The notes under the pieces are model-generated. The model searched no databases. It had not been told where the DNA came from and saw only the letters and a program-made list of their open reading frames with translations. Below, in pieces: positions 6,640-49,471 of a DNA stretch of 64,000 bases. The stretch is from Candidatus Gastranaerophilales bacterium (GTDB lineage Bacteria; Cyanobacteriota; Vampirovibrionia; Gastranaerophilales; Gastranaerophilaceae). Location of the stretch: assembly GCA_947624645.1 (NCBI GenBank), contig CANQLG010000004.1:7006-71005 (forward strand), given 5' to 3'. Every line of letters starts with the position of its first letter. Position 1 is the stretch's first letter. Both the position numbers and the translations under genes were made by a program.

Positions 6640-7862
6640 TATACACCTTTTATGTATTTTCTTTTACCGTATTGAACTATAACAGGAACCATTGATGTTG
6701 TAATTATATAATTCGGGTTAGCCTGTTTTTCCGAATTAACTTTTAAAGCACCTGATTGAGCCAGGCGTTTTATTTCTCCTCTGCTTAATGATTTATCAAA
6801 GTTTGAAATGAAGTCAATTAAAGAAATATCATCTTTTACTTTAACTTCAGGAATATCATCGGGAATTTCTTTATTTTGAACAACCTTAACAAAATTAGCC
6901 TGCGCTTCATCAGCAGCCGTTTTGCCGTTATACATTTGTGTTATTGTATAAGCAAGCTTCATTTTTATATCACGAGGATTAGATGTTTTAAGCTGTTCTT
7001 CTATTTGTTTTAATTCTTCATTAGATATTTCCGTTAAAAGTGCAAAATATTTTACAATCAAGTTATCCGAAATAGACATTAATTTACCGTACATATCATT
7101 GGGAGTATCGGTTAAACTTATACAATGCTGCGGGAATGATTTTGACATTTTAACAATACCGTCAGTTCCTTCAAGCAAAGGCAATAGCATTACCATTTGA
7201 GGATGTTCCTTACCGTATGCGGTTTGGATTTCTCTGCCTAAAAGATTATTAAATCTTTGGTCTGTACCGCCAAGTTCTATATCAGCATCCACTACTACGC
7301 TATCATAAGCCTGCATGAGCGGATAGAAAAATTCATGTACGGAGATGGGTCTATTTTCGGCATAACGTTTTGCAAAATCGTCCCTTGTCATTATCTGAGC
7401 AACCGTAACTTTTGAAGCAAGTTTTAACATGTCAGCAAAATTAAGATTAAACAGCCAATCAGAATTATTTCTTATTTCGGCTTTATTTACATCAATTACT
7501 TTTGAAATTTGTTCAAAATACGTTTTTGCATTTTCTTCTACTTGCTCTTTTGTAAGACTTGGACGAGTATCGGATTTTCCCGACGGATCACCTATCATTG
7601 CTGTTCCTCCGCCGACAATCAAGATTATTTGATGTCCCAAATCCTGAAATTGTTTTATTTTCCTCATTACAACGGTATGTCCCAAATGTAAATCGGGGCG
7701 AGATGGATCCATCCCAAGTTTTACCCTTAAAGGTTTATTTTCTTCTTTTGATTTTTGAAGTTTAAATGCAAGTTCTTCAACCCCACCGGGTAATACTTCG
7801 GCACCTCTTGCCAGTAATGCCGCTTGTTCTAAATATTCAGCTTTTATTTTTACAGTTTCCAT
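6639..7862 (-). CDS. tyrS: Tyrosyl-tRNA synthetase
   Basis: 407 aa; HLGH (DLHLGHTV) and KMSKS (VKMSKSF) motifs and a C-terminal S4-like domain. Its stop overlaps the cysE start (TAATG). Confidence 0.93.
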
Positions 7863-14769: not shown

Positions 14770-14855
14770 TTTTTGTGTTACTTTTTAAGTTTTGGTATAG
14801 GAAGATGAGAAAAAATAATAATAAACACGTTGAAGATAAGAAAATGTATTTTGTA

Positions 14856-33351: not shown

Positions 33352-33431
33352 AAGAAAAATATTAATACGGAAAAATGTTTTTTTCAATTATAATAACTTA
33401 AAATAAATATTTATAGTATAATTAAGAAAAT

Positions 33432-33505
33432 GCCTCTGTAGCTCAGCTGGATAGAGCGCTTCCGTCCTAAGGAAGGCGTCGCACGTTCGAATCGTGTCAG
33501 GGGTA
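33432..33505 (+). tRNA. tRNA-Arg (anticodon CCU)
   Basis: GCCTCTG-TA-GCTC-AGCTGGATA-GAGC-G-CTTCC-GTCCTAA-GGAAG-GCGTC-GCACG-TTCGAAT-CGTGT-CAGGGGT-A. It is 74 nt and the cloverleaf folds by hand with a few G-U pairs. Confidence 0.85.
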
Positions 33506-33517
33506 TTTTTTTATTGC
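33490..33517 (+). repeat. att core copy 1 (3' end of tRNA-Arg plus 12 nt downstream)
   Basis: aatcgtgtcaggggtatttttttattgc, identical to 33651-33678. Confidence 0.85.
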
Positions 33518-33650
33518 GGATAATTTTTTACACGATGAGAACGTAAAAAACAAAGTTTTGTTTTAGTTCGAGCGTGAACGAGCTGAGGCTGAAGTGGCGG
33601 ATGCGTTGAGCATTCGACACGTAACGCCGTTAATTGCGAGTGAACAAGAC

Positions 33651-33678
33651 AATCGTGTCAGGGGTATTTTTTTATTGC
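33651..33678 (+). repeat. att core copy 2 (direct repeat of the tRNA-Arg 3' end)
   Basis: A 28/28 identical direct repeat lying 161 bp downstream of copy 1 and overlapping the stop of the integrase pseudogene. Confidence 0.85.
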
Positions 33679-34125
33679 CGTCTATTTGCAAGCCTTTTAG
33701 CCATGCTAATTATTTTTTTATTCGGCGGATTTTCATTTATTCTCACATTATTCTCACATTTTTCAGAAAAAATATTATTTATCTTATTCCGAGCTTTAAT
33801 TATCATATCGTTATTGTTCTTAGCGTATATTTTTAAAGTCGTTTCCGCTTTTGAATGACCTACTTGATTTTAAACAAATTTTACACTTAAACCGTTTGCC
33901 AAGCCCAAATCAATATATGAGCCTCTTAAATCGTGCATCCTCACTCGTTTTTCAATTCCGCAAAGCTCAAGCAGTTTATACCAAAATCTTATGCAGAAAT
34001 TACTGTCATTATGGCAATTGCCTGCTCGATTCGAAATAACAAAGAATTATCTTTATCAAGAGTTTTTATATGCTCTTTTAGAACTTCTGCAAAGAACGCA
34101 ACGGGAACAAGTTTTAATGACGCAT
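33672..34125 (-). pseudogene. Tyrosine recombinase (phage integrase) remnant: C-terminal catalytic half with an in-frame stop and a frameshift
   Basis: The minus strand reads ..VPVAFFAEVLKEHIKTLDKDNSLLF.. then, in another frame, ..FCIRFWYKLLELCGIEKRVRMHDLRGSYIDLGLANGLSVKFV*NQVGHSKAETTLKIYAKNN... The HxLR and GH..T..Y boxes are present, there is a TAA between them, and the N-terminal half is absent. Confidence 0.75.
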
Positions 34126-35138
34126 TCAGATTAATTCGCACCGAAACGAGCCATATTGACGGGCAAGTAACACTCGAGGGCTACAAACAGGCAAAAGAGG
34201 AATTAGGGCTTGAATATTATGATTATGACGCTTTTTTAGATTCGAAAACGTCGACAATTTGTGAAGAATTAAACGGTAAAAGATTTAGAATAGATGAAGC
34301 CGAAGTCGGGGTGAATTATCCCCCAATGCACCCGAACTGCCGAAGTACAACACAACTTGTTTTAGATGAGAATTATAAAAAGGAAGAAAAAGAAACCGTA
34401 AAAGTAGGTGCAAACGAAAATAAAAACAACGAAGCAAAAGAAACAAATAAAAATTCTGCTCAAAAAAGCTCTGATGATAAACCCGTCTTAATTGAAAAAG
34501 GAACACAGAAAAAAGGCTCTGAAATACCGAAAGAAGAAAAAATTACTTATAAACCATTTGATAATGGAGAAGCAGCTAATGAATTCTTTTATAAAAATAA
34601 AGAATATCAAAAATGGGTTAATAGCCTGAATAAAGACGAGACTGAAGCAATACAAGAATATACAGAAGATTTATATTCAGTTATTAATGACAAATTGCGT
34701 GGATTTTATGATACTGATGATAAACTTATTAATGATGCAATAAATAAATTAAGCAATTCTATTGATAATTTTAAATTAACTGATAATATTCAAGTTTATA
34801 GAGGTGTAGATGTAAATGCTCTTGACGGCTTTATGCGACAAAATAATATAAATAAATATACTGAAGCTATCGGTAAAATTTATAATGATAAAGCCTTTAT
34901 GAGTACATCCTTATTAAAATCAGGTGCAGGCTTAGAAAAATTTAATGAACAAGATATTCAATTTATAATAAATATTCCTAAAGGAAAAGGTCGAGGTGCA
35001 TATATAAATGAATTGTCTTTAAAAAAAGACAAAGAATATGAGTTTTTACTTCAAAAGAACTCAAAACTAAGAATAACAGATGTAAAACCAATAGAAAATA
35101 CTAACCAAACAATTATTTTTGCTGATTTAGAAATTTAG
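33933..35138 (+). CDS. N-terminally truncated MuF/SPP1 gp7-family head-morphogenesis protein fused to a C-terminal R-S-E ADP-ribosyltransferase toxin domain
   Basis: MuF core from about 34090 (FRLIRTETSH.., DSKTSTICEELNGKRF, PPMHPNCRSTT). ART motifs are EYTEDLYSVINDKLRG, VYRG (Arg codon 34800-34802), FMSTS (34902-34910) and EYE (35034-35042). The first ~55 codons of the ORF overlap the integrase remnant and are probably not native. Confidence 0.8.
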   Translation: MHPHSFFNSAKLKQFIPKSYAEITVIMAIACSIRNNKELSLSRVFICSFRTSAKNATGTSFNDAFRLIRTETSHIDGQVTLEGYKQAKEELGLEYYDYDAFLDSKTSTICEELNGKRFRIDEAEVGVNYPPMHPNCRSTTQLVLDENYKKEEKETVKVGANENKNNEAKETNKNSAQKSSDDKPVLIEKGTQKKGSEIPKEEKITYKPFDNGEAANEFFYKNKEYQKWVNSLNKDETEAIQEYTEDLYSVINDKLRGFYDTDDKLINDAINKLSNSIDNFKLTDNIQVYRGVDVNALDGFMRQNNINKYTEAIGKIYNDKAFMSTSLLKSGAGLEKFNEQDIQFIINIPKGKGRGAYINELSLKKDKEYEFLLQKNSKLRITDVKPIENTNQTIIFADLEI

Positions 35139-35400
35139 GCTTGTTATTTTCTAAAAAATCAAGTGCTTCTTTCCATTCATTTATTTTTTTATGATTAGGC
35201 ATTTTTTCTATAAAGCAAGAAAGTATAATATATAGTGGTGTCCAATGGTTTCTACCGCCGGGGTTAAAATCATATTTTTTAGATGCTTTGCATTGTTCTA
35301 ACGGTGTAGTTAATAAACGAACATAATATGAATAAAAAAAGTGTTCTTCCAGTCCTTTTGTTATGCAATAATTTTTTACTTTTTCAAGTTCTTGGTTCAT
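35113..35400 (-). CDS. Hypothetical 95-aa protein (downstream partner of the HTH gene; its 3' end overlaps the toxin 3' end by 26 bp)
   Basis: The ORF is open from TTG 35430; ATG 35400 (MNQELEKVKNY..) is the more likely start. No recognisable motif. Confidence 0.45.
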   Translation of the reverse strand: MNQELEKVKNYCITKGLEEHFFYSYYVRLLTTPLEQCKASKKYDFNPGGRNHWTPLYIILSCFIEKMPNHKKINEWKEALDFLENNKPKFLNQQK

Positions 35401-35414
35401 ATTTATATTATACC

Positions 35415-35612
35415 CTATTTCTTTTCCCAAGTTATTTTATAACCTAACAAGTCAGCTATATCGCAAACTTCCAAATAGTCAAAAGTTCCCATTTTTAGCC
35501 TTTTACTTATATTTTGCGGGGTTACGTCCAATCGTTCCGCAAGTTTAGTAATATTTAGCCCTTGCTCTGCCAATTTACTTTTAATTAAAAATTCTAATTC
35601 AACTTTATTCAT
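35415..35612 (-). CDS. XRE-family helix-turn-helix protein
   Basis: 65 aa; GLNITKLAERLDVTPQNISKRL is a typical HTH_XRE helix2-turn-helix3. Confidence 0.7.
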   Translation of the reverse strand: MNKVELEFLIKSKLAEQGLNITKLAERLDVTPQNISKRLKMGTFDYLEVCDIADLLGYKITWEKK

Positions 35613-35751
35613 ATTTACATTTTAAACTATACATTTTAATATTTCAACCCTAATATTACAAATTGTAAATAGATATTTAAAACAGATATTGACATTTTAA
35701 AATACATGGTTTAAAATTAAAATATAGAGTTAATTCAAAGGAGATAAACAA
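35613..35751. promoter_or_regulatory. Divergent promoter/operator region of the remnant (possible switch region)
   Basis: Palindrome TTACAA-A-TTGTAA at 35656-35668. Three copies of ACATTTTAA start near 35617, 35631 and 35692. The context is AT-rich, so support is weak. Confidence 0.3.
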
Positions 35752-35964
35752 ATGGAAAAATTATTAAAAGCAATTAACAAAGAATTGAAAATTTACAATG
35801 ATGAAATTGAAGGTTTAAAAATTGATGATGTATTAAAAAACGGAATTATTTATTTAAGCGATAAAAAAGGTAATTCCTATGCAGCAAGAAAGACAGCAAC
35901 AGGAAGATATAAAAAAGATAGTTTTCATTTAATGAGGAGTTTTATCAATATTTGTTATTGTTAA
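35752..35964 (+). CDS. Hypothetical 70-aa protein
   Basis: Strong RBS (AAAGGAG, 8 nt upstream of the ATG). A hairpin plus T8 follows at about 35966-35992. Confidence 0.45.
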   Translation: MEKLLKAINKELKIYNDEIEGLKIDDVLKNGIIYLSDKKGNSYAARKTATGRYKKDSFHLMRSFINICYC

Positions 35965-36035
35965 GGGGCATAAAGCCTCTTTTTTTTAATCTTTTTAATT
36001 TTTTTGCCCGATTTTCAATCTGTCATAATTCTTTT

Positions 36036-36101
36036 ATGCGTTACTCACGCAGTAAAAACAGGGGTAATATGCGTAACTCACGCAGTAAAAATAGAGGAAA
36101 T
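36036..36101 (+). repeat. Two tandem 33-bp repeats, each with a tgcgt-N5-acgca dyad
   Basis: atgcgttactcacgcagtaaaaacaggggtaat / atgcgtaactcacgcagtaaaaatagaggaaat (29/33 identical), located immediately upstream of the RBS of the scaffold-like ORF. Confidence 0.85.
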
Positions 36102-36118
36102 TATAAGGAGAAAACATT

Positions 36119-36394
36119 ATGGCAGACGAAAAAAACACACCACAAGAAAAGACATTTACGCAAGCTGATGTAGACAAACTTATTGAAGAAAACAACGCAA
36201 AACATCAAAATGAAATGGATGCACTTGCAAGTAAAATGAGAGCGGAATTTAAGGAAAAAGAGCAAAAGGCAAAAGAAGCCGCAGAAAAAGCCGCAAAACA
36301 AGCAAATATGTCAGAACTTGAAAAGGCAACGGCAGAGCTTGACGAGTACAAATCAAAGTATGCAATTTATAAAACATTAAAAAATGAGGGTTAA
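36119..36394 (+). CDS. Phage scaffold-like protein fragment (DUF4355-like N-terminus), probably truncated
   Basis: AAGGAG RBS. ..KTFTQADVDKLIEENNAKHQNE.. followed by a K/E/A-rich helix resembles the N-termini of capsid scaffolding proteins. It is only 91 aa and ends at the host terminator. Confidence 0.4.
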   Translation: MADEKNTPQEKTFTQADVDKLIEENNAKHQNEMDALASKMRAEFKEKEQKAKEAAEKAAKQANMSELEKATAELDEYKSKYAIYKTLKNEG

Positions 36395-36407
36395 TAACCC
36401 TCATTTT
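36381..36407. terminator. Bidirectional terminator (perfect 11-1-11 palindrome)
   Basis: aaaatgagggtta-a-taaccctcatttt lies between the scaffold fragment and the convergent 2399-aa gene. Confidence 0.65.
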
Positions 36408-36413
36408 CAGAAT

Positions 36414-39400
36414 CTATGATTTTACCTCTTTCTTTACTAAATACATTAGCCTTATTGGAGAATCATATGATTTTGTTTGAGGAGGTCTTGTTATATACTT
36501 TTTGACAGGTTGTTCGGGTTCAATTGGGTTTTGTAATTGAGATTCAGATGCATTCGCTTTTTTATTGCGATGATTATCTAACAAATATTGAAGCCCAAAC
36601 TGGAAGCCCACACCGGTAATACCTGCATTACGGATATTAATTTGACCGTATGTTGCCAATTTATCTTTAAATGTTTTAGTAGCACCAAAACCATATTGGA
36701 ACACACCGTGGTCAAGTTTCATATCAGGAAGTTTAATATTTGCAGCATTTCCTTTTACTTTATCATTAATAAAGAACATATACTGGAATGCGGCATATAG
36801 GCTCCAAGTTTCTTTAGCGAAAATGAAGTTTACACCAGGTGCAACATTAACACCGTTTAACATACCCGTACTCATATCTACATCACCATAATTACTGTGC
36901 CATTTTTGTTTTCCAATAGCATTATATGCAACAAATACATTTGGCTGTATAGTGAAACTCTTTGAAGCATGCAAGTTATATGCTGATTTAATAGCACTAC
37001 CTGCAAACCAGTTACCCGTATTATCATTATAGCTTGAGTAGCTCATTTCATTTGTATAACCGCCGCCATATGCCAAAATTGAAGTAATAAAATCGTTATT
37101 TTTAATAAATGATCCCATAAAGCCTAATTGACCTGCATTTTGATATGCACCTGCGCCTTGGAAATATTGATGAGCGCCTGTGTATCCCACATAACCTGTT
37201 GGTACAAACGTCCAATCTTTTTTAAGTTCTATGGCGGGCATATCAAACCCTGCTATTGTGCCATAAATATTATTACCTATTCTCAAATTTTGTTTCATAT
37301 CAAGCTTATCAAAAGAAACATAAGTTTTTGACCACAAACCGCCTTCTTTATATGTTTTTTGATACGGGGCAAACAATGGAGATACGGCAGAATATTTGTT
37401 AGCATTCACTGCTTTATTAATCATAGTTTGATCATGTAAAACAAAATGATTGGTAATCATATCTTCTACTTGCAACTGATTAGAATACATAGCGGTTGTT
37501 GCAACCTGACCTCTGAATTCTTCAGGAACGTATTTTGCAAGATATAAATCAAACATTTTCGGATCACCGTCAACACCCTTTAAGCCATAATATCCGACAG
37601 GAGTTCTGATAAGTTTATCCGTTGTACTGGTATTAACATTTTCCTGTACACTTTCAAACAATTGATACCTTATCGTTCTGTCTAGCGGACATTTACCTTG
37701 GAGTGAAAAATCATCGATATAAAGATTTGCATCTTCAAGCGCACCTTCTTTTTGTGTGACATTTTTAAAATCGAATTTATCACTGCGTTTATCTCTGGGG
37801 CTAAAATCAACCGTAAATTTTCCGGTTCCGTCAAGTTCTACGTTATCAGCCTCAGCACTATCAATCTTGCCGTTCATCAGTCCAAATTTGGAGTTACCCT
37901 CCATTGTTAGTTTATCGGCTTTAAAATTTCCTTCTTCATTATCCGAACCTGCATAATTAAGCGTTGAATTATTAAGTAAAACTTCTCCGCCTCTAATAGA
38001 ACTGTCTTGTCCGTTAAGCGTAATATTAGAATCAGTAAAATTAGATTTACCGCCCGTTTGAAGTAAACCGCCTCCGCTAGCTGTATTATCAACTCCCGTT
38101 GCATTAAGCGTTCCGCCTTTTCCTTCTTCTTTTTCAATTGTAATAGTGCCTGCCCAGATATCTTCTTGATCCAAATTAAAGGTAGCATCATCTTCTATAT
38201 TAAATTTAGCTCCTTTTTCAAGTTCTACTTGGACCTCATCTTTAATTATACTTCCGGAACCGCCTTCGTTTCCTTTGAAATCAAATTCTGAACCGTTTTT
38301 AAATTTTAATTTACCCAGTTCCGCATTAAGTCCGCCTGACTGTCTGCTAACACCTTCTTCATCTTTCGACATACCATATTCAAGAATACCACCGCTTAAT
38401 TTAACATCGCCTGCCCATTTATCATCGTTTCCGAAGGTAACGGCACTATTTTCCTGTACTTCCAGTTTTCCGCCTTGTTCTAAATTAAGGGTTACTTCAT
38501 CGGAGATAATACTTTCGCCTTTAAGTGTCAAATTCAGACCGTCTTCGCCTCCATCTTCACCGATTTGAAGTGTACCGCCTGACATTTTAAGATTTTTAGC
38601 TTCGCCTTCTATTTGCCAGTTTAATTTACCGTTAGTAATATTTGTATCACCGCCAAAAAATTTAGCTTCACCCGTTACATTTGTTGTTCCGCCGGTTTGA
38701 GAATAACTGCCTGTATATCCGCTTGCATCACCCGTCAAATCAATAATACCCTCTTCACTATTGATAATTGCACCTTTTGAAGCGCTTTCGCCGCTAGTTA
38801 ACTTGCCGTTTAATTCCAAGTGACCTTTACCGCTGTTTGTAATACTTCCATCATTTTCTACTTCGTTAAGGGTCATTTCACCTGAATTTTTTATACCGTT
38901 ATCTCCGTTTGCAGTATTTGTAACTTTGCCTTCAACAGAAAGAGAGGCACTTTCACCTGTATTATTAAAGGTGCCTGTGTTTTCCATATTACCTGTAATA
39001 TCATAGGTACCCTTATTATCAACTTTTCCGTTGTTCGTATCATTACCTTGATTTGTAATTGTACCTTCATTTGAGATAGTACCATTATTTGCACTTGATG
39101 TTTGTATTGTTATATTACTGTCTGACGCATTTTTAATATTTCCGTTTTTGGCAGAATTTTCTAATGACCCTAAGGCTAAAGAACCTGCTAAAGTGTCAGA
39201 TCCGTTATTTAATGTGCCGTTATTTGTAAATGTATATCCTTCATTTGTTATTGTACCTGTATTATTTACAGTATCACCGTTTATAATATTTCCGTTAGCA
39301 GTAATTTCAGCTCCGTTTGTATTATCTATGGTACCTTTTGTATTATTCAAGGCATCATTAACAGTTAAATGAGAATCTGCACCATCATTGGTAATAGTTC

Positions 39401-42400
39401 CGCCATTATTTGTAAGTTCACCTGTTATGTTAAATTGTCCGCCTTCTTTATTTTCTAATATACCATTTTGACCGTTTGTTACTGCATTTTCTGCTGTAAA
39501 TTGTGCATTTTCGCCTGAGTTTGTTATTGTCCCGTCATTAGTTACAGCACCTTTTGCATCAAAAGTACCGTTATTTGTTATTTTACCTTGTTCCGATGTC
39601 GATGTTGTACCTTGAACTTCGGTAGTGGAACCATCTTCATTTATATATTCGCCACTATTGTAGTCTAAATTTTCTTCAACAATAACTTTACCTTCATCTG
39701 TTGCATTATTTCTAAAAATACCGCCTTTTCCGAATAGATTTTTAACAGTAAATTTACCGTTATTAGAGTTTAATGCATTACCCGAGTTATTAAATGTTGA
39801 ATTTTCAGCTAAGAATGTTCCCTCATTCGTAAATGTTCCCGAGTTTGTCGCCGTGTCACCCGTTACGGTTACACTTCCTTTATTTGTAAATCCTTTATCT
39901 TCACCTGTTCCGCTATTTTCAAAGGTTTGAGCTGTCAGAGAACTATCTTCGGTTTCATTAGCATATTTACCCGAGTTCGTAAATTTGCCGTTTTCTGCCT
40001 TGAATGTTCCGCTGTTGGAAATATCACCGGCATTTACGGCATCGCCGTTTGATGTAAATTCGCTTGATTCCGAGTTTGTAATTGAAGCGCCGTCTTGGTT
40101 ATTTAATGAATCGACGTTCATTGAATTTTCATTGATTATATTTCCGCCTGATTTATTGTCAAATGCACCTTTAACCGTAATATTTCCTTCACCTGAATTT
40201 TTAACGGAACCTGAATTATCCATTGAACCTGCACTCAGAGTGCCTGTATTTTCTATACCTTTTTTTTCATCAGAACCCGAACTTGAATTGGTCAGTTTTC
40301 CGTCTGTTTTAAAAGTTCCGCTGTTTTCAATAGTACCGTTATTGTTGTTTGTAACATCTCCCGTTATTGTAAATCCGCCTTTACCCTCAGTCTCGGTACT
40401 GCTGTTATTTATACTACCGCCGTCATTTGTTAAATTCCCTTGACCTTTAAAAGTACCTTCATTTACTATATTTCCGCCTGTTTGGTTTTTTATTTCGCCA
40501 TTAACGGTAAAATCAGCATCGGCATTATTTGTTATATTGCCTGTATTACTTCCTATTGAGCCTGCAGTAAGTGAACCCGATTCATTGGTAACCGTTCCTT
40601 TTGTATTTGTTAAAGTACCTGTTATTTCAACATTACTGCCTTTATTTGTAAAACTGTTTTGTTCAGTTGCAAGGGTAAGATTACCCATTGTTAATGAGGA
40701 TTCTTCTGCATCTTCGCCGGTAACTAAATCACTATCACCATTAAGTGTAACGTCTGTAATATTTGCGGTACCTTTATTAGCGAAAGTACCTGTTTCCATA
40801 GTCAAACTTTTAAGGTTAAAAGTATCACCATTATTAGTAAGAGTACCTTTATCAGAATTTGTAAATGAACTCAAAGCTGCATCAAATATACCGCCATTAA
40901 CAAAACTGCCAGAGTTTGTTATTGAATGTTCACCTTGTACGGTAAATTTTCCAGAATTATCAAATTTGCTTGAATTATCAATAGAGCCTGATCCCTCTAC
41001 TAAAACGGTACCTTCATTTGTAAAGCCCTTATCATCACCCGTAGCGTTATTGGTAAAATCACCAGTTATAGTTAAGTTACCCGTTTCGGCTTTATTATCA
41101 AATTTACCGGAGTTTGTAAAGTCACCTGATGAAAATGAACCGCTGTTATCTATTGTACCTTTATTTTGTGTTGAACTTTTTGATGTAAATGAGCTTGAAG
41201 CAGAATTTGTCAGTGTTGCATTTTCTTCATTAGTAAAAGAACCTGCACTCATAGTTTTTTCGTTGGTTATTTGGGCATCACTTTTATTTTCTAATGCCCC
41301 TGAAATATCAATATTACCGTTGCCGCTATTTTTCACAGTACCTTGATTTTCCATCGAGTTAGCCTTTAAGGTACCTGTATTATCTATTCCTGCATCGGTT
41401 GAACCCTTACTTGAGTTTGTAATTTTTCCGTTTGAAGAAAGCGTACCTTGATTTTTTATTGAACCGTCGGTTTGATTTTGAATATCTCCCGTAATTGTTA
41501 TATCACTGGAATTGTTATTAGTTAAAGCACCTGAATTATCAAGTGAACCACCGGTCATTGTGCCAGAGTTAGTTATATTGGCATCACTTTTATTTTGTAT
41601 TTGCCCGGATACCGAGAAATTTGATGAATTTTCTACTGTGCCTGAATTATCTAAAGAATCTGCACTAAATGTACCTGATTGATTATCGATTTTTCCGCTT
41701 TGTTCGTTTGTAACGGCACCTGATGCGGTCGAAGTCCCTTTATTTGTATAATCACCAGAATTCGTCATTGATTCAAAGGTCATTTCACCCGAATTGGTTA
41801 TACCTTTACTGTTATCGCTGTTTTTTCCGGAATTAGTAAACTCACCTGTAATATTCAGTTCTGCGTCGTTTGTAACTTTTCCGCTGTTATTAAATCCCGC
41901 ATTAAATTTTACATTACCCTCATTTTTATTTTCTAAATTTCCGCTATTATTAAAATTTCCGTTTTCAACGCTAAAAGTTCCTCCGTCATTGGTTAAGTTA
42001 GAGCTGTTTGTACTTTCGCCTACACCGTTAACCGTAACTGAGCCTTTATTTGTAAAATTAGCATCAACGCCTTCATTTTTTTCATTTTTGAATGCACCAC
42101 CTACTGTAACTGAACCTGATTCATTGTTAAAAGTACCTTTGTTTGTTAAATCATTATCAGATTGGACTTTACCGCCATTATTAGAAAAAGTTCCCGAATT
42201 AGTAACTGTATCTCCTGATATTGAACTTCCTTCTCCCGTATTATTGAAAGTTCCCTCATTGATTACACCTCCTGTTGCGGTGATGGAACCTGAATTCTCA
42301 TATTGAGAAGTTCCTTCGTTTCTAAAATCGCCTTCTACGTCAAAATCCGCATTTGCAAGGTTCTCTGCTGTTGAACCGTTTGAGTTAGTAAATGCATTTG

Positions 42401-43613
42401 CACTTACGTGTCCTGCATTAGAAAAACCTTTATTATCATTTTTTCCTGAGCTTGAGTTAGTAATTGAGCCTGCTTTTAAATAGGCATTCGCTTCATTTTT
42501 TATGATACCATTTGAGTTATTAGTAATATTTCCTTCTATTGAAAACCCATCTTCTTGAGTACTTGAGTTTGTTATTTCTCCTGTATTTGTTAACGAGTTA
42601 GCAGAAAATTTAGCACTGTTTGAAAGTTGGGCTTGGTTGTCAACTGAATTTGCACTAAATGTACCCGATTGATTGTCAATTTTACCGCTTTCTTCGTTTG
42701 TAACTGCACCTGTTATATCCGTTTGACCTTTATTTGTATATTCGCCTTTGTTGTTCATTGACCCCGCATTCAAATTACCCGAGTTGGATATTATACCGTT
42801 AGGTTCCTCTTCATCCTCTTTTTTTGCGTTTTCTAAGGCAGAAGTTCCAAGGTCTAAAGTCGAATTTTCATAATTTGTTACACTACCCGTATTGGATAAG
42901 CCTTTTGATAAATTCAATTGTCCTTTATTTTTGTTATCCATTTGACCATCGTTAGTCATTTTATCGCTTACACTGAAGCTTCCGCCATCATTAGTGATAC
43001 TGCCTTTATTCTCGCCGGTTCCCGATACAGAGAATGTGCCCTGATTAGTCAATCCTGCACTTTTGTTTTCGTCCGAACCGTTTGTCAGATTACCTGTGAT
43101 AGTTGCCGTACCTGTTGCATCATCAGTCTTTGAATTTGTTATTTGACCATCATTTCTTAAATCAACACCATTCATCTTTCCTTTATTTTCTATGGTGCCT
43201 TGGCTTTTATTTTTAAATTCTCCTTTTGAAGTTAATGTACCTGCACTTTCAATGGTAACATCACCCTCATTATCAATGGTACCTCTTTCTTGATTATCAG
43301 TTATTGAGGTTTCTCCTGTAATTTTGCCGTCATCATCTATGTTTATTTTTGATATACCGTAATCGTCATTCATTACCAGCAAAGTATTGCTTTGTTTTGA
43401 ATCGTCTAAATGTATAATATCATCTTGTTTTATATTATCGTTTGTTATTGTTATTCGCTTTATATCAGGGTTAACACTTGCTTGTGATATTGACATACTT
43501 CCTGTCCCAATCAACGCCGCCAATAATGCAGCCATTTTCAATTTATTTTCGTTATTCAAAAATACCCCCCCCCGAACCTTTTTCAGAACGGGAGCTACTA
43601 TTCTATTCCACAC
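36414..43613 (-). CDS. Giant type Va autotransporter (2399 aa) with an N/G/T/S-rich solenoid-type passenger
   Basis: Signal peptide ..KLKMAALLAALIGTGSMSISQA; about 2000 aa of degenerate ~20-aa xNxGxxxN repeats with large internal duplications; C-terminal barrel region (..YVGYTGAHQYF.., ..GVGFQFGLQYLL). The true start is uncertain (GTG 43613, TTG 43559 or ATG 43535). Confidence 0.85.
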   Translation of the reverse strand: MWNRIVAPVLKKVRGGVFLNNENKLKMAALLAALIGTGSMSISQASVNPDIKRITITNDNIKQDDIIHLDDSKQSNTLLVMNDDYGISKINIDDDGKITGETSITDNQERGTIDNEGDVTIESAGTLTSKGEFKNKSQGTIENKGKMNGVDLRNDGQITNSKTDDATGTATITGNLTNGSDENKSAGLTNQGTFSVSGTGENKGSITNDGGSFSVSDKMTNDGQMDNKNKGQLNLSKGLSNTGSVTNYENSTLDLGTSALENAKKEDEEEPNGIISNSGNLNAGSMNNKGEYTNKGQTDITGAVTNEESGKIDNQSGTFSANSVDNQAQLSNSAKFSANSLTNTGEITNSSTQEDGFSIEGNITNNSNGIIKNEANAYLKAGSITNSSSGKNDNKGFSNAGHVSANAFTNSNGSTAENLANADFDVEGDFRNEGTSQYENSGSITATGGVINEGTFNNTGEGSSISGDTVTNSGTFSNNGGKVQSDNDLTNKGTFNNESGSVTVGGAFKNEKNEGVDANFTNKGSVTVNGVGESTNSSNLTNDGGTFSVENGNFNNSGNLENKNEGNVKFNAGFNNSGKVTNDAELNITGEFTNSGKNSDNSKGITNSGEMTFESMTNSGDYTNKGTSTASGAVTNEQSGKIDNQSGTFSADSLDNSGTVENSSNFSVSGQIQNKSDANITNSGTMTGGSLDNSGALTNNNSSDITITGDIQNQTDGSIKNQGTLSSNGKITNSSKGSTDAGIDNTGTLKANSMENQGTVKNSGNGNIDISGALENKSDAQITNEKTMSAGSFTNEENATLTNSASSSFTSKSSTQNKGTIDNSGSFSSGDFTNSGKFDNKAETGNLTITGDFTNNATGDDKGFTNEGTVLVEGSGSIDNSSKFDNSGKFTVQGEHSITNSGSFVNGGIFDAALSSFTNSDKGTLTNNGDTFNLKSLTMETGTFANKGTANITDVTLNGDSDLVTGEDAEESSLTMGNLTLATEQNSFTNKGSNVEITGTLTNTKGTVTNESGSLTAGSIGSNTGNITNNADADFTVNGEIKNQTGGNIVNEGTFKGQGNLTNDGGSINNSSTETEGKGGFTITGDVTNNNNGTIENSGTFKTDGKLTNSSSGSDEKKGIENTGTLSAGSMDNSGSVKNSGEGNITVKGAFDNKSGGNIINENSMNVDSLNNQDGASITNSESSEFTSNGDAVNAGDISNSGTFKAENGKFTNSGKYANETEDSSLTAQTFENSGTGEDKGFTNKGSVTVTGDTATNSGTFTNEGTFLAENSTFNNSGNALNSNNGKFTVKNLFGKGGIFRNNATDEGKVIVEENLDYNSGEYINEDGSTTEVQGTTSTSEQGKITNNGTFDAKGAVTNDGTITNSGENAQFTAENAVTNGQNGILENKEGGQFNITGELTNNGGTITNDGADSHLTVNDALNNTKGTIDNTNGAEITANGNIINGDTVNNTGTITNEGYTFTNNGTLNNGSDTLAGSLALGSLENSAKNGNIKNASDSNITIQTSSANNGTISNEGTITNQGNDTNNGKVDNKGTYDITGNMENTGTFNNTGESASLSVEGKVTNTANGDNGIKNSGEMTLNEVENDGSITNSGKGHLELNGKLTSGESASKGAIINSEEGIIDLTGDASGYTGSYSQTGGTTNVTGEAKFFGGDTNITNGKLNWQIEGEAKNLKMSGGTLQIGEDGGEDGLNLTLKGESIISDEVTLNLEQGGKLEVQENSAVTFGNDDKWAGDVKLSGGILEYGMSKDEEGVSRQSGGLNAELGKLKFKNGSEFDFKGNEGGSGSIIKDEVQVELEKGAKFNIEDDATFNLDQEDIWAGTITIEKEEGKGGTLNATGVDNTASGGGLLQTGGKSNFTDSNITLNGQDSSIRGGEVLLNNSTLNYAGSDNEEGNFKADKLTMEGNSKFGLMNGKIDSAEADNVELDGTGKFTVDFSPRDKRSDKFDFKNVTQKEGALEDANLYIDDFSLQGKCPLDRTIRYQLFESVQENVNTSTTDKLIRTPVGYYGLKGVDGDPKMFDLYLAKYVPEEFRGQVATTAMYSNQLQVEDMITNHFVLHDQTMINKAVNANKYSAVSPLFAPYQKTYKEGGLWSKTYVSFDKLDMKQNLRIGNNIYGTIAGFDMPAIELKKDWTFVPTGYVGYTGAHQYFQGAGAYQNAGQLGFMGSFIKNNDFITSILAYGGGYTNEMSYSSYNDNTGNWFAGSAIKSAYNLHASKSFTIQPNVFVAYNAIGKQKWHSNYGDVDMSTGMLNGVNVAPGVNFIFAKETWSLYAAFQYMFFINDKVKGNAANIKLPDMKLDHGVFQYGFGATKTFKDKLATYGQINIRNAGITGVGFQFGLQYLLDNHRNKKANASESQLQNPIEPEQPVKKYITRPPQTKSYDSPIRLMYLVKKEVKS
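43565..43573 (-). repeat. C9 (G9 on the coding strand) homopolymeric tract at the 5' end of the giant autotransporter gene
   Basis: Counted directly: aataCCCCCCCCCgaacc. The coding strand reads GTT CGG GGG GGG GTA TTT TTG. Confidence 0.95.
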
Positions 43614-43711
43614 GCAAATGTTATTATAAACATACTTTCAATACAATATTAATAAACATTTATTGTCTTTTTTGTTATAATTTTTAAAATTAGTTTTTTA
43701 AAGGATTTGTC

Positions 43712-44917
43712 ATGCTAACCATTGAAAAAGTAAAAGATGCACAAAAAGTGCTTTCAGATATTGTCAGAAAAACTGATCTTATTCACGCTCAAAATTTTTT
43801 TAATAATGCGGAAATATATCTTAAAGTTGAAAATCTTCAAAAAACAGGCTCTTTTAAAATAAGAGGGGCAGGCTATAAAATTGCAAACTTATCCGAAGCT
43901 GAAAAACAAAAAGGTGTTATTGCTTGTTCTGCCGGAAACCACGCACAAGGTGTTGCTCTTGCTTCTCAAAGAAACAATATTAAATCAACCATATTTATTC
44001 CTGCTACCGCACCAATATCTAAGGTTGAAGCAACAAGAAAACTTGGTGCCGAGATTAAACTTATTGACGGTGTTTATGATGATGCATATAATGCTTGTGT
44101 TCAATACCAAAAACAAACAGGCTCAACTTTTGTACACCCCTTTGATGATGAAGATGTTATTGCGGGGCAGGGTACTATCGGATTGGAAATTCTCGAACAA
44201 CTTCCTGATGTTGATGCCGTTATTGTTCCTATCGGGGGCGGCGGGCTTATATCAGGTGTTGCTTATACTATAAAGCAATTAAACCCGAAATGTAAAGTAT
44301 ACGGAGTTCAGGCTCAAGGTGCAGGAAGTATGTATCAATCCTTTATTAATAAAAAGATTCTTGAATTACCGGTAGTTCATACTTTTGCTGATGGGACTGC
44401 CGTCAAAAAACCGGGGCAGCTGACTTTCGATTTATGTTCCAAATACGTTGATGATATAGTTACTGTTACTGATGATGAGATAGCATCCGCTATCCTTGCT
44501 TTGATGGAAAAACAAAAGCTTGTTGCAGAAGGAGCGGGTGCTCTAAGTGTTGCTGCCGCTATGTTTGATAAACTGCCTATAAAGGGGCTTAAAACCGTAT
44601 GTCTTATTTCTGGCGGGAATATTGATGTTAATATATTATCACGAGTTATTAACAGAGGACTTTTAAAATCAGGCAGATTATCTCATTTAACTATTGAATT
44701 GCTTGATAAACCAGGACAATTAAAAGAGGTTTCTTCTATTATTGCCGAACATGGTGCTAATGTTATCAGGGTAAGACACAATCAGGGCGGTGAAAATACC
44801 GATATTAACGATTGTTTCTTAAAAATTTCAATGGAAACTAAAAATGCACAGCACTTTGAAGAAATTCAAAAAGCTTTAACCGCTAAAGGGTATAAAATCA
44901 CTTCCAACGTTCAATAA
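43712..44917 (+). CDS. ilvA: Threonine ammonia-lyase (threonine dehydratase) with a C-terminal ACT-like domain
   Basis: PLP-lysine motif TGSFKIRGA, SAGNHAQGVA and GGGGLISG; 401 aa. Confidence 0.88.
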   Translation: MLTIEKVKDAQKVLSDIVRKTDLIHAQNFFNNAEIYLKVENLQKTGSFKIRGAGYKIANLSEAEKQKGVIACSAGNHAQGVALASQRNNIKSTIFIPATAPISKVEATRKLGAEIKLIDGVYDDAYNACVQYQKQTGSTFVHPFDDEDVIAGQGTIGLEILEQLPDVDAVIVPIGGGGLISGVAYTIKQLNPKCKVYGVQAQGAGSMYQSFINKKILELPVVHTFADGTAVKKPGQLTFDLCSKYVDDIVTVTDDEIASAILALMEKQKLVAEGAGALSVAAAMFDKLPIKGLKTVCLISGGNIDVNILSRVINRGLLKSGRLSHLTIELLDKPGQLKEVSSIIAEHGANVIRVRHNQGGENTDINDCFLKISMETKNAQHFEEIQKALTAKGYKITSNVQ

Positions 44918-44934
44918 AAAAATTTTAAACCCAA

Positions 44935-45395
44935 AGACATTGGTAAAATTACCGTTATAACCATATACAAAGTTTCGTTATTTTAGTTGCCTAAACAACA
45001 TCACAGCTTCGTCTGTTCGAAGTGCGAAAGCACAAGTTACGAAGCTTTTAGTTTAGGCTAATAAAATAGAAACGGAGTATCGGTTATAACGGTAATTACA
45101 CCAATGTCTATATATTTTTGTTATTTTAGTTGCCTAAACAACGTCACAGCTTCGTCTGTTCGAAGTGCGAAAGCTCAAGTTACTAAGCCTTTAGTTTAGG
45201 CTAATAAAATAGAAACGGAGTATCGGTTATAACGGTAATTTTACCAAGGTTTATATGTTTTTGTTATTTTAGTTGCCTAATCAACGTTGCGGCTTCGTTT
45301 GTTCGAAGTGCGAAAGCACAAGTTACGAAGCCTTTAGTTTAGGCTAATAAAATAGAAACGAAGTATCAGTTATAACGGTAATTTTACCAATGTCT
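44935..45395. repeat. 143-bp x3 tandem, internally hairpinned repeat block bounded by 28-bp inverted repeats
   Basis: Units start at 44977, 45120 and 45263. The left arm 44935-44962 is the reverse complement of the unit tails (26/28 with 45082-45109, 27/28 with 45368-45395). There are nested dyads and a GAAA-tetraloop hairpin. Confidence 0.9.
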
Positions 45396-45414
45396 ATATA
45401 TTACGGAATCTATA

Positions 45415-47376
45415 TCACTCGATTACCCAATGTTCAATTATATCTTGACTTATGTCATCTAAAAATCTCGACGGTTTTGACAAAACCATATTTGTTCCGT
45501 AATCATACATATCTATCGGATAAGTTATGGTTAAATACGTTTTTGCTCTTGTTATGGCTACATACATTAATCTTAATTCTTCTTCCAACTCTTCCATAGT
45601 ATTAAATGAATATAAAGAGGGAAATCTTCCGTCGACTGCGCCGATAATAAATACAGCTTTATATTCCAAACCTTTGGCACTGTGTATAGTTGATAGTGTT
45701 AAATATTCATCATCTTTTGAACCCCCTTCGACATCAACTGCCGATGTATCAGGCGGTTCCAATGCCAAGTCGCTTAAAAAATCTTCTAAGCTTGTATAGC
45801 CTTCACTTAAAGCTATAAAATGTTCCAAATCCTTTTCCCGTTTGTCCGAGTCATCATATCTGTCTTTCAAAATGGGTTCATAATATTCTATGACGTTTTG
45901 AACTGCCTTTTTGGGATTATATATATCCTTTTGGCTTATATCTATTAATTTTGAAAGCCTTATTATAGCATCAGGATTTTTAACATTAAGCTTAGTCTCT
46001 GTATTTATTCCGTCTTTTAAAACGGGTAAAAGTTTATTTGCGCTTTGAATACCAACTCCATCCAGTAATAAAAGTATCCTTATATAACTTATTATATCAT
46101 CGGGATTTAATATTACTCTTAAATGTGCTATAACATCCTTAATATGCGCTGACTCTATAAATTTCATTCCGCCGAATTTTTTAAACGGTATATTACGTTT
46201 AGATAATTCCAGCTCTATATTGTATGTCATCCTTGCACTGCGAGCTAAAACACATATATCATTAAGCGTTAATCCGTCCTCTTCACACAGTTCCAAAACT
46301 CTTTGCACTACAAATGCCGCTTCCGTACTCATATCCTTTGCACATACAAGTGCCGGTTTTATCGGGCTTTCTGTCTCGGAGTACAGTGTCTTTGTGTATT
46401 TTTCTTTTGCTTTTTTTAATACTTCGTTGGCTAATGCCAATATGTTTTGTGTACTCCTGTAATTACGCTCCAATTTAATTATTTTTGTATCGTCATACAT
46501 TTTGGGAAATTCAAGTATATTTCTATAATTTGCTCCTCTAAAAGAGTATATACTTTGAGAATCATCACCGACAGCCATTACGTTATTGTGCTCTGATGCA
46601 AGTAATTTAACTATTTGCGCTTGTATAGTATTAGTATCCTGATATTCATCAACCATTATATATTTATATCTGTTTGATAAATCCTTTCTTACCTTGGGAT
46701 TACTTTCCAACAATGTCCTTAAATATAACAAAAGATCATCATAATCCAATATTGAATTTTTATGCTTATATATATTGTATTCATGTATAATTTCGTTTAT
46801 TTTTTCGGTATTGGATTCAAATTGTTTATATTCCGTTAATATAACTTCTTCTGAGGGAATATTTTTGTTTACAGCCTTGGAATATATATCAAGGATAGTA
46901 CCTTTTCTCGGGAATCTTTTTTCCTGCTTTCCTATCAAATTCGACCTTATATGGTTTATAATATCCTCACTGTCTGCTCTGTCCGTTATCGTAAAATTAT
47001 TGTTTAACTCCAATAAATTTGAGTACTTTCTCAATATTATGTTTGCAAAAGAATGAAATGTACCGCCGGATATTTTATCACATCTTGAATCTAATACAAT
47101 TGATGCACGTGTCATCATCTCTCGTGCCGCTTTACGGGTAAATGTCAATAATAATATATTTTCGGGATTAACCCCGTCCTCTATTAATCTGGCTACACGA
47201 TATGTTAACGTTTTGGTTTTTCCGGAACCCGCTCCTGCTATTACCAACACTGCACCATCTTTTTGTTTCACAGCTTCCAGTTGCTCGGGATTCAATTCCT
47301 TTGCATAATCAACCTTATATGATGTTTGAGTTTCCACTCTCTTAAGTTTGTATTTTTTTACCGTTATTTCTTCCAT
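45415..47376 (-). CDS. UvrD/PcrA/Rep-family superfamily 1 DNA helicase
   Basis: AGAGSGKT (Walker A), DEYQDTN, GDDSQSIYSFRGA, NYRS, TIHSAKGLEY and YVAITRAK motifs; 653 aa. Confidence 0.88.
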   Translation of the reverse strand: MEEITVKKYKLKRVETQTSYKVDYAKELNPEQLEAVKQKDGAVLVIAGAGSGKTKTLTYRVARLIEDGVNPENILLLTFTRKAAREMMTRASIVLDSRCDKISGGTFHSFANIILRKYSNLLELNNNFTITDRADSEDIINHIRSNLIGKQEKRFPRKGTILDIYSKAVNKNIPSEEVILTEYKQFESNTEKINEIIHEYNIYKHKNSILDYDDLLLYLRTLLESNPKVRKDLSNRYKYIMVDEYQDTNTIQAQIVKLLASEHNNVMAVGDDSQSIYSFRGANYRNILEFPKMYDDTKIIKLERNYRSTQNILALANEVLKKAKEKYTKTLYSETESPIKPALVCAKDMSTEAAFVVQRVLELCEEDGLTLNDICVLARSARMTYNIELELSKRNIPFKKFGGMKFIESAHIKDVIAHLRVILNPDDIISYIRILLLLDGVGIQSANKLLPVLKDGINTETKLNVKNPDAIIRLSKLIDISQKDIYNPKKAVQNVIEYYEPILKDRYDDSDKREKDLEHFIALSEGYTSLEDFLSDLALEPPDTSAVDVEGGSKDDEYLTLSTIHSAKGLEYKAVFIIGAVDGRFPSLYSFNTMEELEEELRLMYVAITRAKTYLTITYPIDMYDYGTNMVLSKPSRFLDDISQDIIEHWVIE

Positions 47377-47397: not shown

Positions 47398-48636
47398 TTA
47401 TAGAGGCAGAACTATCTCGAATACAGTTTCTTTTTCATCAGATATTACTAAATTTATTTTTCCGCCCGCTTCTTTCAATTGTTTATTACAAAAATATAAC
47501 CCTAAACCGTTTCCTTGGTCTTTTGTTGTGTAGTTTTCTTCAAAAATCTTTTCAATATTTTCTTCCGGTATTTTTGCCCCGTCATTTTTAATTCTGATTT
47601 TTAATTGTTTTTCCGTTTTATTTACCGATATATTTATCTTACAACCATCACTGCAAGCTTCTATTCCGTTATATATTATGTTTATTAATGCACATTCAAG
47701 CCGTGATTTATCAGTATTTATTATTAAATCTTCAAGATTATCAGACTTTATTAATATACCTGCACCTTGCGCTTTTTGTGTACACATCAATATAACATTT
47801 TCTATAAGCGGTTTTATATTTACTTCTGTTATATATAGAGATGATAAGCAACGCAAACTGCCTATCAGACTTGATATATTCTCAGATGCATTTTCTATAC
47901 ATTTTATCGCATTTTGTATTGATAATGTTGTTTCTTTATCAGCCTCAACCGTTTCTATACGTTTATCCAATATTCTTGAATATAAGTTTATTACAGATAA
48001 ACTGTTTTTTATTTCGTGAGAAATAAATTTTGCCTTTTCATTTACCGTTTGAGCAGTCTTTTGAATTTCATCCTGCTGAATTAACGAAGATTTTTCATTT
48101 GAACTAAATAATAATTCTTCAGTTTTATCATCAAAACATTTAATAAGTTCATTTATTGATTGATTTAAACTGCTGTTTTCACGTCTTTCCGACACACATT
48201 TTTGTATTTGGGCATTTGAATTATTCGCAATTAAACTCAATATATCATTTATTCGTTTTGAATTATAAATTATACAATACTTTGCAAAAGTACCGGAGTT
48301 TCTATCTGATGAAGAATAATCCCATATTAGTGCGCAGGAATATCTTTCATCTAAAACCGTTACAAATTCTATTTCCTCCCAAATGTTACTCTTTTGGTTG
48401 GATATTCCGCTAAAATCAACCAACTTTGAACCTGTATATTCGATTCGTTTTATTAACGTATCTTTCAAGTCTTTTGAAGAAGTATTTAACCTGTATAAAA
48501 TTTGTGATTTTGAATTAATATTCATATATATCGGGGCTAAAATCACGCGAAAGAGACCTGATATGGTCTCCTTCGTACATTCTCTCTCCGAATTATTATA
48601 TAAGTACTGCTTCAATGTATTAAAGTTATTTTTCAT
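47398..48636 (-). CDS. Soluble sensor histidine kinase
   Basis: H-box FISHEIKNSL, N-box NIIYNGIEA, G-boxes NDG and GNGLGL. There is no TM segment, and the ~190-aa N-terminal domain is of unrecognised type. Confidence 0.8.
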   Translation of the reverse strand: MKNNFNTLKQYLYNNSERECTKETISGLFRVILAPIYMNINSKSQILYRLNTSSKDLKDTLIKRIEYTGSKLVDFSGISNQKSNIWEEIEFVTVLDERYSCALIWDYSSSDRNSGTFAKYCIIYNSKRINDILSLIANNSNAQIQKCVSERRENSSLNQSINELIKCFDDKTEELLFSSNEKSSLIQQDEIQKTAQTVNEKAKFISHEIKNSLSVINLYSRILDKRIETVEADKETTLSIQNAIKCIENASENISSLIGSLRCLSSLYITEVNIKPLIENVILMCTQKAQGAGILIKSDNLEDLIINTDKSRLECALINIIYNGIEACSDGCKINISVNKTEKQLKIRIKNDGAKIPEENIEKIFEENYTTKDQGNGLGLYFCNKQLKEAGGKINLVISDEKETVFEIVLPL

Positions 48637-48643: not shown

Positions 48644-49342
48644 TTATACAGCAAGCTTTAATTTTTTTCTATTTTTAAATCCGTTATTTATTGCATATAA
48701 AACTGCTTGTGTTCTGTCGTTTACCTGAAGTTTTTGGAAAATATTATTTACGTGTGTTTTTACGGTTGTTTCACTTATGAATAATTGTTGTGCAACTCCT
48801 TTATATGTTACGCCGCAAGTTAATAATTCCAGTACTTCTTCTTCTCTTTGCGTTAAATATTGCAATAAATTTTCTTCATTTGTTTGTGCGTTATGTTCAT
48901 CTTTAAATGTTTTTTGAAAATATTCAAAGAATCTTGAAGATAGGCCTGAGGGTAAATATATTTTTCCTTGGAGTACTTCTTCTATCGCATATATGAGCTG
49001 AGCCGATGCCATCGTTTTCAGTATATAACCCTTAGCGCCTATCTTCATTGCTCTGAATATTAAGTCAGGATCATCATATCCCGTTAATGCGATGATTTTT
49101 GTCCCTAAATTCAATCTTTCTATCTCACTTATTGCCGTTAAGCCGTCTTTTTCCGGCATATTTATATCCATTAATACTATATCGGGCTGGTATTTTTTTA
49201 CTAAGTTTATTGCAATATTGGCATTTGTTGCCGTCGCTATTACTTCAAAATTTGTTTCCATATTTATAAGTTCACGAATCCCCAGCAAATGATCAAAATT
49301 ATCATCTGTTAATAATACTTTTATTTTTTTGTTAAATTCCAT
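48644..49342 (-). CDS. NarL/FixJ (LuxR-type HTH) response regulator
   Basis: Receiver with LLTDD, VLMDINMP and a K in KGYILK. C-terminal LTQREEEVLELL..ISETTVKTHVNNIFQKL. The start is moved to ATG 49342. Confidence 0.88.
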   Translation of the reverse strand: MEFNKKIKVLLTDDNFDHLLGIRELINMETNFEVIATATNANIAINLVKKYQPDIVLMDINMPEKDGLTAISEIERLNLGTKIIALTGYDDPDLIFRAMKIGAKGYILKTMASAQLIYAIEEVLQGKIYLPSGLSSRFFEYFQKTFKDEHNAQTNEENLLQYLTQREEEVLELLTCGVTYKGVAQQLFISETTVKTHVNNIFQKLQVNDRTQAVLYAINNGFKNRKKLKLAV

Positions 49343-49471
49343 TGGTCTTCTCATATACACACTCACGCCCCTTCGTAAATACCTCGCTTACACTATTCAT
49401 ATTACCTGTATAAGCATGGGCGCTCATCCATATTTGGATTGATTTATCTATGTAAAAAGATTTATTTAATT

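Follow-up and report, generated by a model that had tools for sequence, protein, structure and literature searches.

In the 64-kb stretch of DNA that was analysed (the window), a gene for an IlvA-like threonine ammonia-lyase (ilvA) and a gene for a UvrD/PcrA-type helicase converge on a spacer of 497 nt between their stop codons, which contains a 461-bp block of repeated sequence at 44935-45395. Both genes were assigned by Pfam matches, the first also by homologues named threonine ammonia-lyase, and their identity and convergent orientation agree with the preliminary description of this DNA. A distance of 17 nt separates the ilvA stop codon from the left repeat of the block, and 19 nt separate the last right repeat from the helicase stop codon. 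The parts of the locus are as follows, with the units given in the register of Tandem Repeats Finder.

43712-44917, plus strand: threonine ammonia-lyase (IlvA-like, PALP and ACT domains)
44935-44961, no strand: left terminal inverted repeat, AGACATTGGTAAAATTACCGTTATAAC, complementary to 45369-45395 at 27 of 27 positions
44935-45109, no strand: basic 175-bp palindromic element, made of left repeat, linker, nested-hairpin core and first right repeat
44973-45115, plus strand: tandem unit 1, with core hairpin 44973-45077, GNRA-tipped apical hairpin 45022-45033 and right repeat 45083-45109 (2 mismatches)
45116-45258, plus strand: tandem unit 2, with core 45116-45220, apical hairpin 45165-45176 and right repeat 45226-45252 (2 mismatches)
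45259-45402, plus strand: tandem unit 3, with core 45259-45363, apical hairpin 45308-45319 and perfect right repeat 45369-45395
45415-47376, minus strand: UvrD/PcrA-type helicase, convergent with ilvA

The array was recovered by Tandem Repeats Finder at 44973-45402, with a period of 143, 3.0 copies, 92% matches, 0% indels and a score of 741, which makes it the strongest in the window by far; a repeat search gave the three copies identities of 100, 93 and 92%. This bears out the earlier count of three head-to-tail 143-bp units between the two stop codons, as well as the earlier estimate of roughly 90% identity. Pairwise, the units are 88-91% identical over 147 columns, or 92-94% without the first 14 columns. 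Variation is found in 22 of the 147 columns, any two units differ at 13-18 positions, and the longest identical run is 51 nt.

The inverted repeats that had been described as framing the block, 44935-44961 and 45369-45395, are fully complementary (27/27, 100%), and the right-repeat orientation of this 27-mer is also found at 45083 and 45226, with 2 mismatches each. There are therefore four copies of the 27-mer in the window, against 0 expected by chance (100 shuffles). The layout reads left repeat, 11-nt linker, and then three times core hairpin, 5 nt, right repeat and 6 nt, so that a single left end is followed by three right ends. The left repeat, AGACATTGGTAAAATTACCGTTATAAC, holds two small palindromes, GGTAAaaTTACC and GTTATAAC. 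Also within the terminal repeat are a 5-2-5 dyad, GGTAAnnTTACC, and TGGTAAAAT, an extended -10-like motif that faces inward from both ends (44941-44949, 45238-45246 and 45381-45389). Inside the units, the coordinates previously given for the helices of a nested hairpin are all exact (45005-45012/45039-45046, 45022-45033 and 45291-45298/45325-45332); in unit 2, one substitution breaks the apical hairpin at 45165-45176 and another breaks the inner helix.

The block is non-coding, as had been proposed, with stop codons in all six frames and a longest ORF of 31 aa. It is not, as had also been claimed, noticeably richer in G+C than its surroundings: its G+C content of 34.5% compares with 34.8% and 34.4% in the 500 nt on either side, and exceeds only that of other intergenic DNA (27%). 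Elsewhere in the window convergent genes abut or overlap, and this block is the only long inverted-repeat element there. A 19/20-nt match to the 3' arm of the unit's second helix (GTTAGTTTAGGTTAATAAAA) was seen at 5288-5307, in the 5' untranslated region of an ORF starting at 5327 (BLAST E = 0.002 within the window); it has no partner arm and is probably due to chance in A+T-rich DNA.

The region around the block is housekeeping in character, and a scan of ORFs of at least 120 aa in the window revealed no transposase, integrase, reverse transcriptase or RAYT. The helicase is the last gene in a string of response regulator, histidine kinase and helicase, an order shared with the related contig L018. 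The array sits just past the 3' end of this operon, whose response regulator (48644-49366) is of the NarL/LuxR type and whose histidine kinase lies at 47398-48636.

Several other features of the window were recorded in passing. The ~10 kb upstream of ilvA (33388-43711) resemble a variable island, with a tRNA-Arg(CCT) at 33431-33506, a 401-aa protein with a phage Mu F-like domain and an ADP-ribosyltransferase exoenzyme domain (33933-35138), a 1275-nt gap without any ORF of at least 120 aa (35139-36413), and a 2399-aa Asn/Gly/Ser/Thr-rich repeat protein without a Pfam match (36414-43613). A giant homologue of this last protein, 33% identical, occupies the same position in L013, and in L017 a MatE gene lies directly upstream of ilvA. 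Other large ORFs without a Pfam match are found at 11777-14689 (970 aa, with in-frame tandem repeats of 21 and 36 nt at 12750-13387), 14775-19079 (1434 aa) and 21057-23369 (770 aa), and a stand-alone gene for a 195-aa HNH endonuclease (3524-4111) stands amid housekeeping genes.

The first 175 bp of the block (44935-45109) form a nearly complete palindrome, with a 72% match to their own reverse complement over 186 aligned columns, and the register of the duplication relative to this element is informative. The similarity among the units extends to 45402, which is 7 nt past the last right repeat, and the duplicated 143-bp segment includes 6-10 nt that lie outside the inverted repeat; each passage from a right repeat to the next core reads ATAT(A/G)T followed by TTTT. 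The amplification did not use the ends of the element, because the unit carries these 6-10 nt beyond the right repeat.

Our preferred reading is that the block is a lineage-specific, MITE-like extragenic palindromic element, in which a 143-bp segment was later duplicated twice in tandem, and we give it a probability of about 0.45. It starts from what is directly observed, namely the anatomy, the non-coding status, the register of the duplication and the absence from orthologous junctions (see below). The element would have comprised 175 bp, with a nested, imperfect hairpin core flanked by perfect terminal inverted repeats of 27 bp, and would have arrived where the 3' ends of ilvA and the helicase gene meet, presumably by transposition in trans. 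After its arrival, the segment formed by the core, the right repeat and the 6-10 nt beyond would have been duplicated twice in tandem, by replication slippage or unequal crossover rather than by transposition, leaving a left repeat followed by three copies of core plus right repeat.

The number of copies rests on one short-read MAG contig, and it might be asked whether one or two true units were chained into three from strain variants. The exact ilvA and helicase proteins are found only on the window's own 101-kb NCBI contig, and contigs of the same species from other samples are 2-5 kb long, have ~2.5x coverage and end short of the array. Against such an assembly artefact, the units differ from each other at 13-18 of 147 positions with a longest identical run of 51 nt, so that an assembler with a k of at least 55 can thread them uniquely; moreover, the two unit junctions are unlike each other and unlike both outer flanks, which means that junction-spanning sequence must exist in the reads. 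We regard an artefact as unlikely, and as the least probable of all the explanations considered here.

In terms of the properties by which MITEs are recognized, the block is short and non-coding (175 bp for the element and 461 bp for the whole, with stops in six frames) and has terminal inverted repeats (27/27). No target-site duplication of 2-10 nt was found, and for both the whole block and the first element none of 3-9 nt was found when the ends were shifted by up to 3 nt. Terminal repeats common to an autonomous IS or transposase were seen neither in the window nor in an exact-match scan of GTDB genomes, and as to dispersion, no other copy was found in the window or in public collections, and the site is empty in four species with a nucleotide divergence of ~20%. 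We therefore stop short of strict membership in the MITE class, since a target-site duplication, multiple copies and an IS partner were all looked for and not found.

The search for further copies was broad. Within the window, pattern search, blastn, nhmmer and a covariance model gave no second copy. The terminal-repeat pattern had 8 matches in 185,579 GTDB species genomes, all of them chance matches of ~20 nt without further similarity, while in the JGI metagenomes the core tip and the terminal repeat had 0 matches each, and in IMG/VR the repeat, core tip and outer stem had 0 or chance matches. Plasmids and phages gave none with blastn in 'distant' mode, nor did a comparison of the six-frame pseudo-protein of the array with 5.8 billion predicted proteins, in which other copies might have been called as spurious ORFs. 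In ~100 kb of related contigs, nhmmer, blastn and the core covariance model recovered only the array itself and a weak match to a palindrome in L018. No parent IS with these terminal repeats was found in the window or in the GTDB, JGI, IMG/VR, plasmid and phage searches. Since an exact match of 18-22 bases was needed in the collection scans, and those DNA collections do not include the source genome, the absence of other copies is weakly established. The preliminary description had named a unit occurring nowhere else as one of the outcomes that would reduce the block to a local duplication, and this is in part what these searches returned.

The closest named homologue of ilvA, at 81% identity, is from 'Cyanobacteria bacterium SIG29', which places the window in the gut Melainabacteria. 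The closest fragments of the helicase C-terminus are only 81% identical, and the ilvA 'cluster members', peptides of 42-52 aa, proved unrelated. All of the nearest relatives available belong to other species; their ilvA genes are ~80% identical in nucleotides, and four-fold sites differ by 0.53-0.56.

In four of these related species (L017, L025, L028 and L029) the ilvA and helicase stop codons abut without any spacer, which indicates that the block is a lineage-specific gain. L013 and L030 have a different neighbourhood, with only a small ordinary terminator hairpin. In L026, a more distant relative, a short segment is present in four diverged tandem copies (71-84% identical) within the ~800 nt that follow ilvA (4207-5003), with two ORFs of 41 and 44 aa called on the minus strand; this may be an array of small-peptide paralogues and is unrelated to the repeat of the window. 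The L018 junction has a 215-nt spacer (7012-7226) with a different, near-perfect palindrome of ~176 nt (about 7031-7206), which folds at -59 kcal/mol (z = -8.0) and has the outer stem AAAGATAATAAAAAATCT.../...AGATTTTTTATTATCTTT, with an A-run and a T-run at its flanks. Among the junctions sampled, only those of the window and L018 carry a long palindrome between ilvA and the helicase gene.

This second palindrome bears on a different origin, in which the block was never mobile: a hairpin at the junction would have lengthened in place and then been duplicated locally, its palindromy being kept either through hairpin-templated (quasi-palindrome) correction or because a barrier to transcripts from both directions was selected for, and the L018 palindrome would be a diverged homologue of the same ancestral hairpin. 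Such an origin would account for our not finding a target-site duplication, a second copy or a transposase, and for the occurrence of the only other long palindrome, of ~176 nt, at exactly the same junction. The two palindromes are alike in design, each with an A+T-rich perfect outer stem and a G+C-richer tip; L018 is marginally the nearest relative on the helicase C-terminus (a distance of 0.216, versus 0.24-0.26 for the others); and the L018 palindrome is the sole outside match of the core covariance model, at 24 bits and a rough E of about 0.003. With four-fold sites diverged by ~0.53-0.56, loss of similarity would be expected even if the hairpins were homologous.

The same comparisons also tell against an origin in place. 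The window element and the L018 palindrome have no significant sequence similarity, their local alignment score of 21 being no better than that of shuffled sequences (21.1 ± 2.5). Any long A+T-rich hairpin should score with a covariance model built on another one, and the 24-bit match is within that range, since the window's own units reach 26-32 bits with the core model when read on the reverse strand. The gene trees are essentially star-like, and the weak pairing of the window with L018 on the helicase C-terminus is not seen with ilvA. In addition, ends that match perfectly over 27 bp while the interior is much less perfect are typical of repeats recognized by a transposase. The L018 palindrome is in itself equally compatible with a hairpin evolving in place and with an insertion hotspot, and we judge the in-place origin to be unlikely overall, while still the most serious of the alternatives. 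It would be a further and improbable step to take the junction hairpins of the window and L018 as homologues in which the fold and not the sequence was kept across ~50% neutral divergence; they would then form a selected insulator at the DNA or RNA level, a bidirectional terminator, or an undescribed structured RNA of gut Melainabacteria, amplified here to three modules.

RNAfold reproduced the nested hairpin with its GTGC-GAAA-GCAC tip on both strands, in keeping with the preliminary description, with -28 to -35 kcal/mol per unit on either strand. Compared with shuffles, the z-scores of the units are -0.8 to -2.6 on the plus strand and -2.1 to -3.8 on the minus strand; the lowest plus-strand significance is that of unit 2 (z = -0.8), which has z = -3.1 on the minus strand. 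The whole block folds at -146 kcal/mol (z = -8.3), and in its minimum-free-energy fold the left repeat pairs with the last right repeat, enclosing everything between them.

The preliminary description had gone further and argued, from a compensatory change in the inner helix, that pairing is selected. Units 1 and 3 do differ by this A:T to G:C double change, but the change has no statistical weight. RNAalifold gave 38 pairs with one compensatory pair (A-U in unit 1, A.C in unit 2 and G-C in unit 3), five broken pair-cells and a covariation term of +1. The observed covariation was equalled or exceeded in 332 of 500 shuffles, in a comparison of three closely related units that has very little power. 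Neither are the helices depleted in substitutions, 5 of 61 paired columns of the 98-nt core being variable versus 4 of 37 unpaired ones (Fisher p = 0.73). The covariation argument fails because there are only three recent tandem copies, and a lone compensatory change among three such copies should not count as selection on pairing. On the minus strand the unit-2 intermediate is a G.U pair, and two unit-2 substitutions form an alternative helix there; the better folding of this strand is a weak, post hoc hint.

These data bear on the proposal that the block consists of three structured small-RNA genes, or of a single structured RNA made of three modules, with selection acting on the fold. In its favour, the units fold better than shuffles on both strands (z = -3.8, -3.1 and -2.1 on the minus strand), the tip is a GNRA tetraloop hairpin, the A:U to G:C double change passes through a G.U pair on the minus strand, and each repeat copy carries an inward-facing TGnTAAAAT extended -10-like motif. 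This motif, however, is common in such A+T-rich DNA, with 25 occurrences in the window (15 expected), of which 3 are the repeat copies themselves; promoter-like sites are not above chance (5 versus 5.4 expected), and no terminator-like site was found on either strand in 44500-45800. Folding that is equal on both strands through palindromic symmetry is what a DNA-level palindrome would give as well, covariation does not exceed that of the shuffled controls, and broken pairs outnumber the compensated one. The Rfam check gave no family for the block, with only two tRNAs passing the gathering thresholds in the window; at permissive E-values, the best matches in the block are plant miRNA-precursor models with 29-31 bits, versus thresholds of 140-171, which is generic long-hairpin noise. 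No homologue was found in any collection. The RNA reading is without positive support, and we consider it improbable.

For the MITE-like element that we favour, the position between two 3' ends limits what it could do at the RNA level. Both neighbouring genes point into the block and no gene lies downstream on either strand, which excludes roles as a leader, a riboswitch or an antitoxin array. Since there is no downstream gene and no convincing promoter or terminator of its own, the block would exist as RNA only as the 3' tail of read-through from ilvA (plus strand) or from the helicase operon (minus strand). No canonical intrinsic terminator, with a short G+C-rich stem followed by a U tract, was detected; U-rich runs are present 5-6 nt past the long stems. 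In read-through transcripts from either strand each unit could form a stable stem-loop, and the effect, most likely passive, would be to hinder 3' exonucleases and transcription that runs on from one convergent gene into the other. Effects of this kind on exonucleases and read-through have been proposed for REP/BIME, ERIC, Correia, BOX and SPRITE elements. The block most likely has no function, or else acts as a passive hairpin barrier where the two convergent transcription units end.

The matching of the outer repeats could also suggest an inverton, in which the 27-bp repeats are crossover sites and a recombinase encoded elsewhere flips the 407-bp interior. The outer repeats agree at 27/27 positions while the two internal copies have 2 mismatches each, the repeat is made of two small dyad-symmetric sub-sites, and the size and the gut-bacterial host are consistent with known invertons. 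No recombinase gene was found in the 64 kb, though, and the segment lies between two 3' ends, where a flipped promoter would drive no gene. Furthermore, we estimate that, at ~8% divergence among the units, 27 nt would match without a mismatch by chance with a probability of about 0.1. We consider an inverton very unlikely, only slightly less so than an assembly artefact.

Several established classes were tried and rejected. The block is not a CRISPR array, as the preliminary description had already held: the units are head-to-tail, the sequences that separate the 27-nt repeat copies share 92-94% identity, and there are no cas genes in the window. The attC sites of integrons have R'' and R' boxes with the consensus RYYYAAC and GTTRRRY. 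The corresponding GCCTAAAC / GTTTAGGC have one extra base relative to this consensus, the would-be R and L boxes are separated by 8 and 4 nt instead of about 5 and 5, and the window contains neither cassettes nor a tyrosine recombinase, so that attC sites or a CALIN are discarded. A type III toxin-antitoxin RNA array (ToxI-like) is rejected since nothing lies downstream on either strand and the neighbours converge on the array, and a riboswitch or leader since there is no downstream gene. For guide RNAs of retron, IS110 or IS605 type, no reverse transcriptase, transposase or TnpB is found nearby and there is no Rfam match. A dif/Xer site is also discarded, as the block bears no resemblance to the dif consensus sequences with which it was compared.

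The closest parallels are found among the palindromic intergenic repeats of other bacteria. BOX elements of Streptococcus pneumoniae have the organization boxA-boxB(n)-boxC, and slippage or unequal crossover has been invoked for changes in their copy number (PMC3049150). Like the present block, they are short, non-coding and intergenic, with inverted-repeat ends, a stem-loop formed by the whole element, and one module that is tandemly amplified (PMC3049150). In contrast, BOX elements have more than 100 dispersed copies per genome, whereas here one locus is known, without sequence similarity to them, and the amplified BOX module, boxB (45 bp), is internal, whereas the 143-bp module includes the right terminal repeat and a few flanking bases. 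We do not assign the block to the BOX-type modular repeats, since its repeated module takes in the right end and neither a dispersed family nor sequence similarity was found.

Correia/NEMIS, RUP, ERIC and RPE elements (PMC10969869) resemble it in being intergenic, 100-200 bp long, A+T-rich and highly base-paired, with terminal inverted repeats of ~26 bp, and such near-palindromic bacterial MITEs have been proposed to affect termination and mRNA stability (PMC10969869). They differ in having target-site duplications (TA for Correia), many dispersed copies and often an IS partner, none of which was found here. BrickBuilt elements of Porphyromonas gingivalis (PMC4596501) are likewise intergenic and MITE-like, with small inverted repeats as bounds and a spacer-less tandem array. 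Their unit is of 23 nt, with 19 elements per genome and promoter activity, whereas the unit described here is a 143-nt hairpin at one locus with a promoter signal at chance level.

The REP/BIME sequences (PMC3733652) are extragenic palindromes that often lie at convergent 3' ends and sometimes form tandem clusters, and those of enterobacteria and pseudomonads are thought to stabilise mRNA and pause transcription (PMC3733652). REPs are, however, 20-40 nt long, with GTAG/CGTC heads, hundreds of copies and a link to RAYT, none of which applies here; a unit of 143 nt at a single locus, with no Y1/HUH transposase encoded in the window, led us to reject a REP/BIME identity.

Thus, of the three identities put forward in the preliminary description, the MITE-like or extragenic-palindrome one is the best fit to the anatomy and is partly supported, its proofs of mobility having not been found, while neither the structured RNA nor the REP/BIME identity stood up to the comparisons above. 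The block is of a known kind, joining the MITE-like, BOX, BIME, Correia and BrickBuilt repeats, and is so far an orphan among them.

Our literature search found nothing on such elements in the non-photosynthetic gut Melainabacteria. If the MITE-like reading is true, the block adds one more sequence family to the palindromic intergenic repeats of bacteria, and it provides an example of a tandem amplification that takes in one terminal repeat. If it proves to belong to a dispersed family in the full genome, it could serve as a strain-typing marker and may reveal its IS partner. The finding would carry greater weight if the palindromes at the same junction in sister species were one structure conserved without conservation of sequence.
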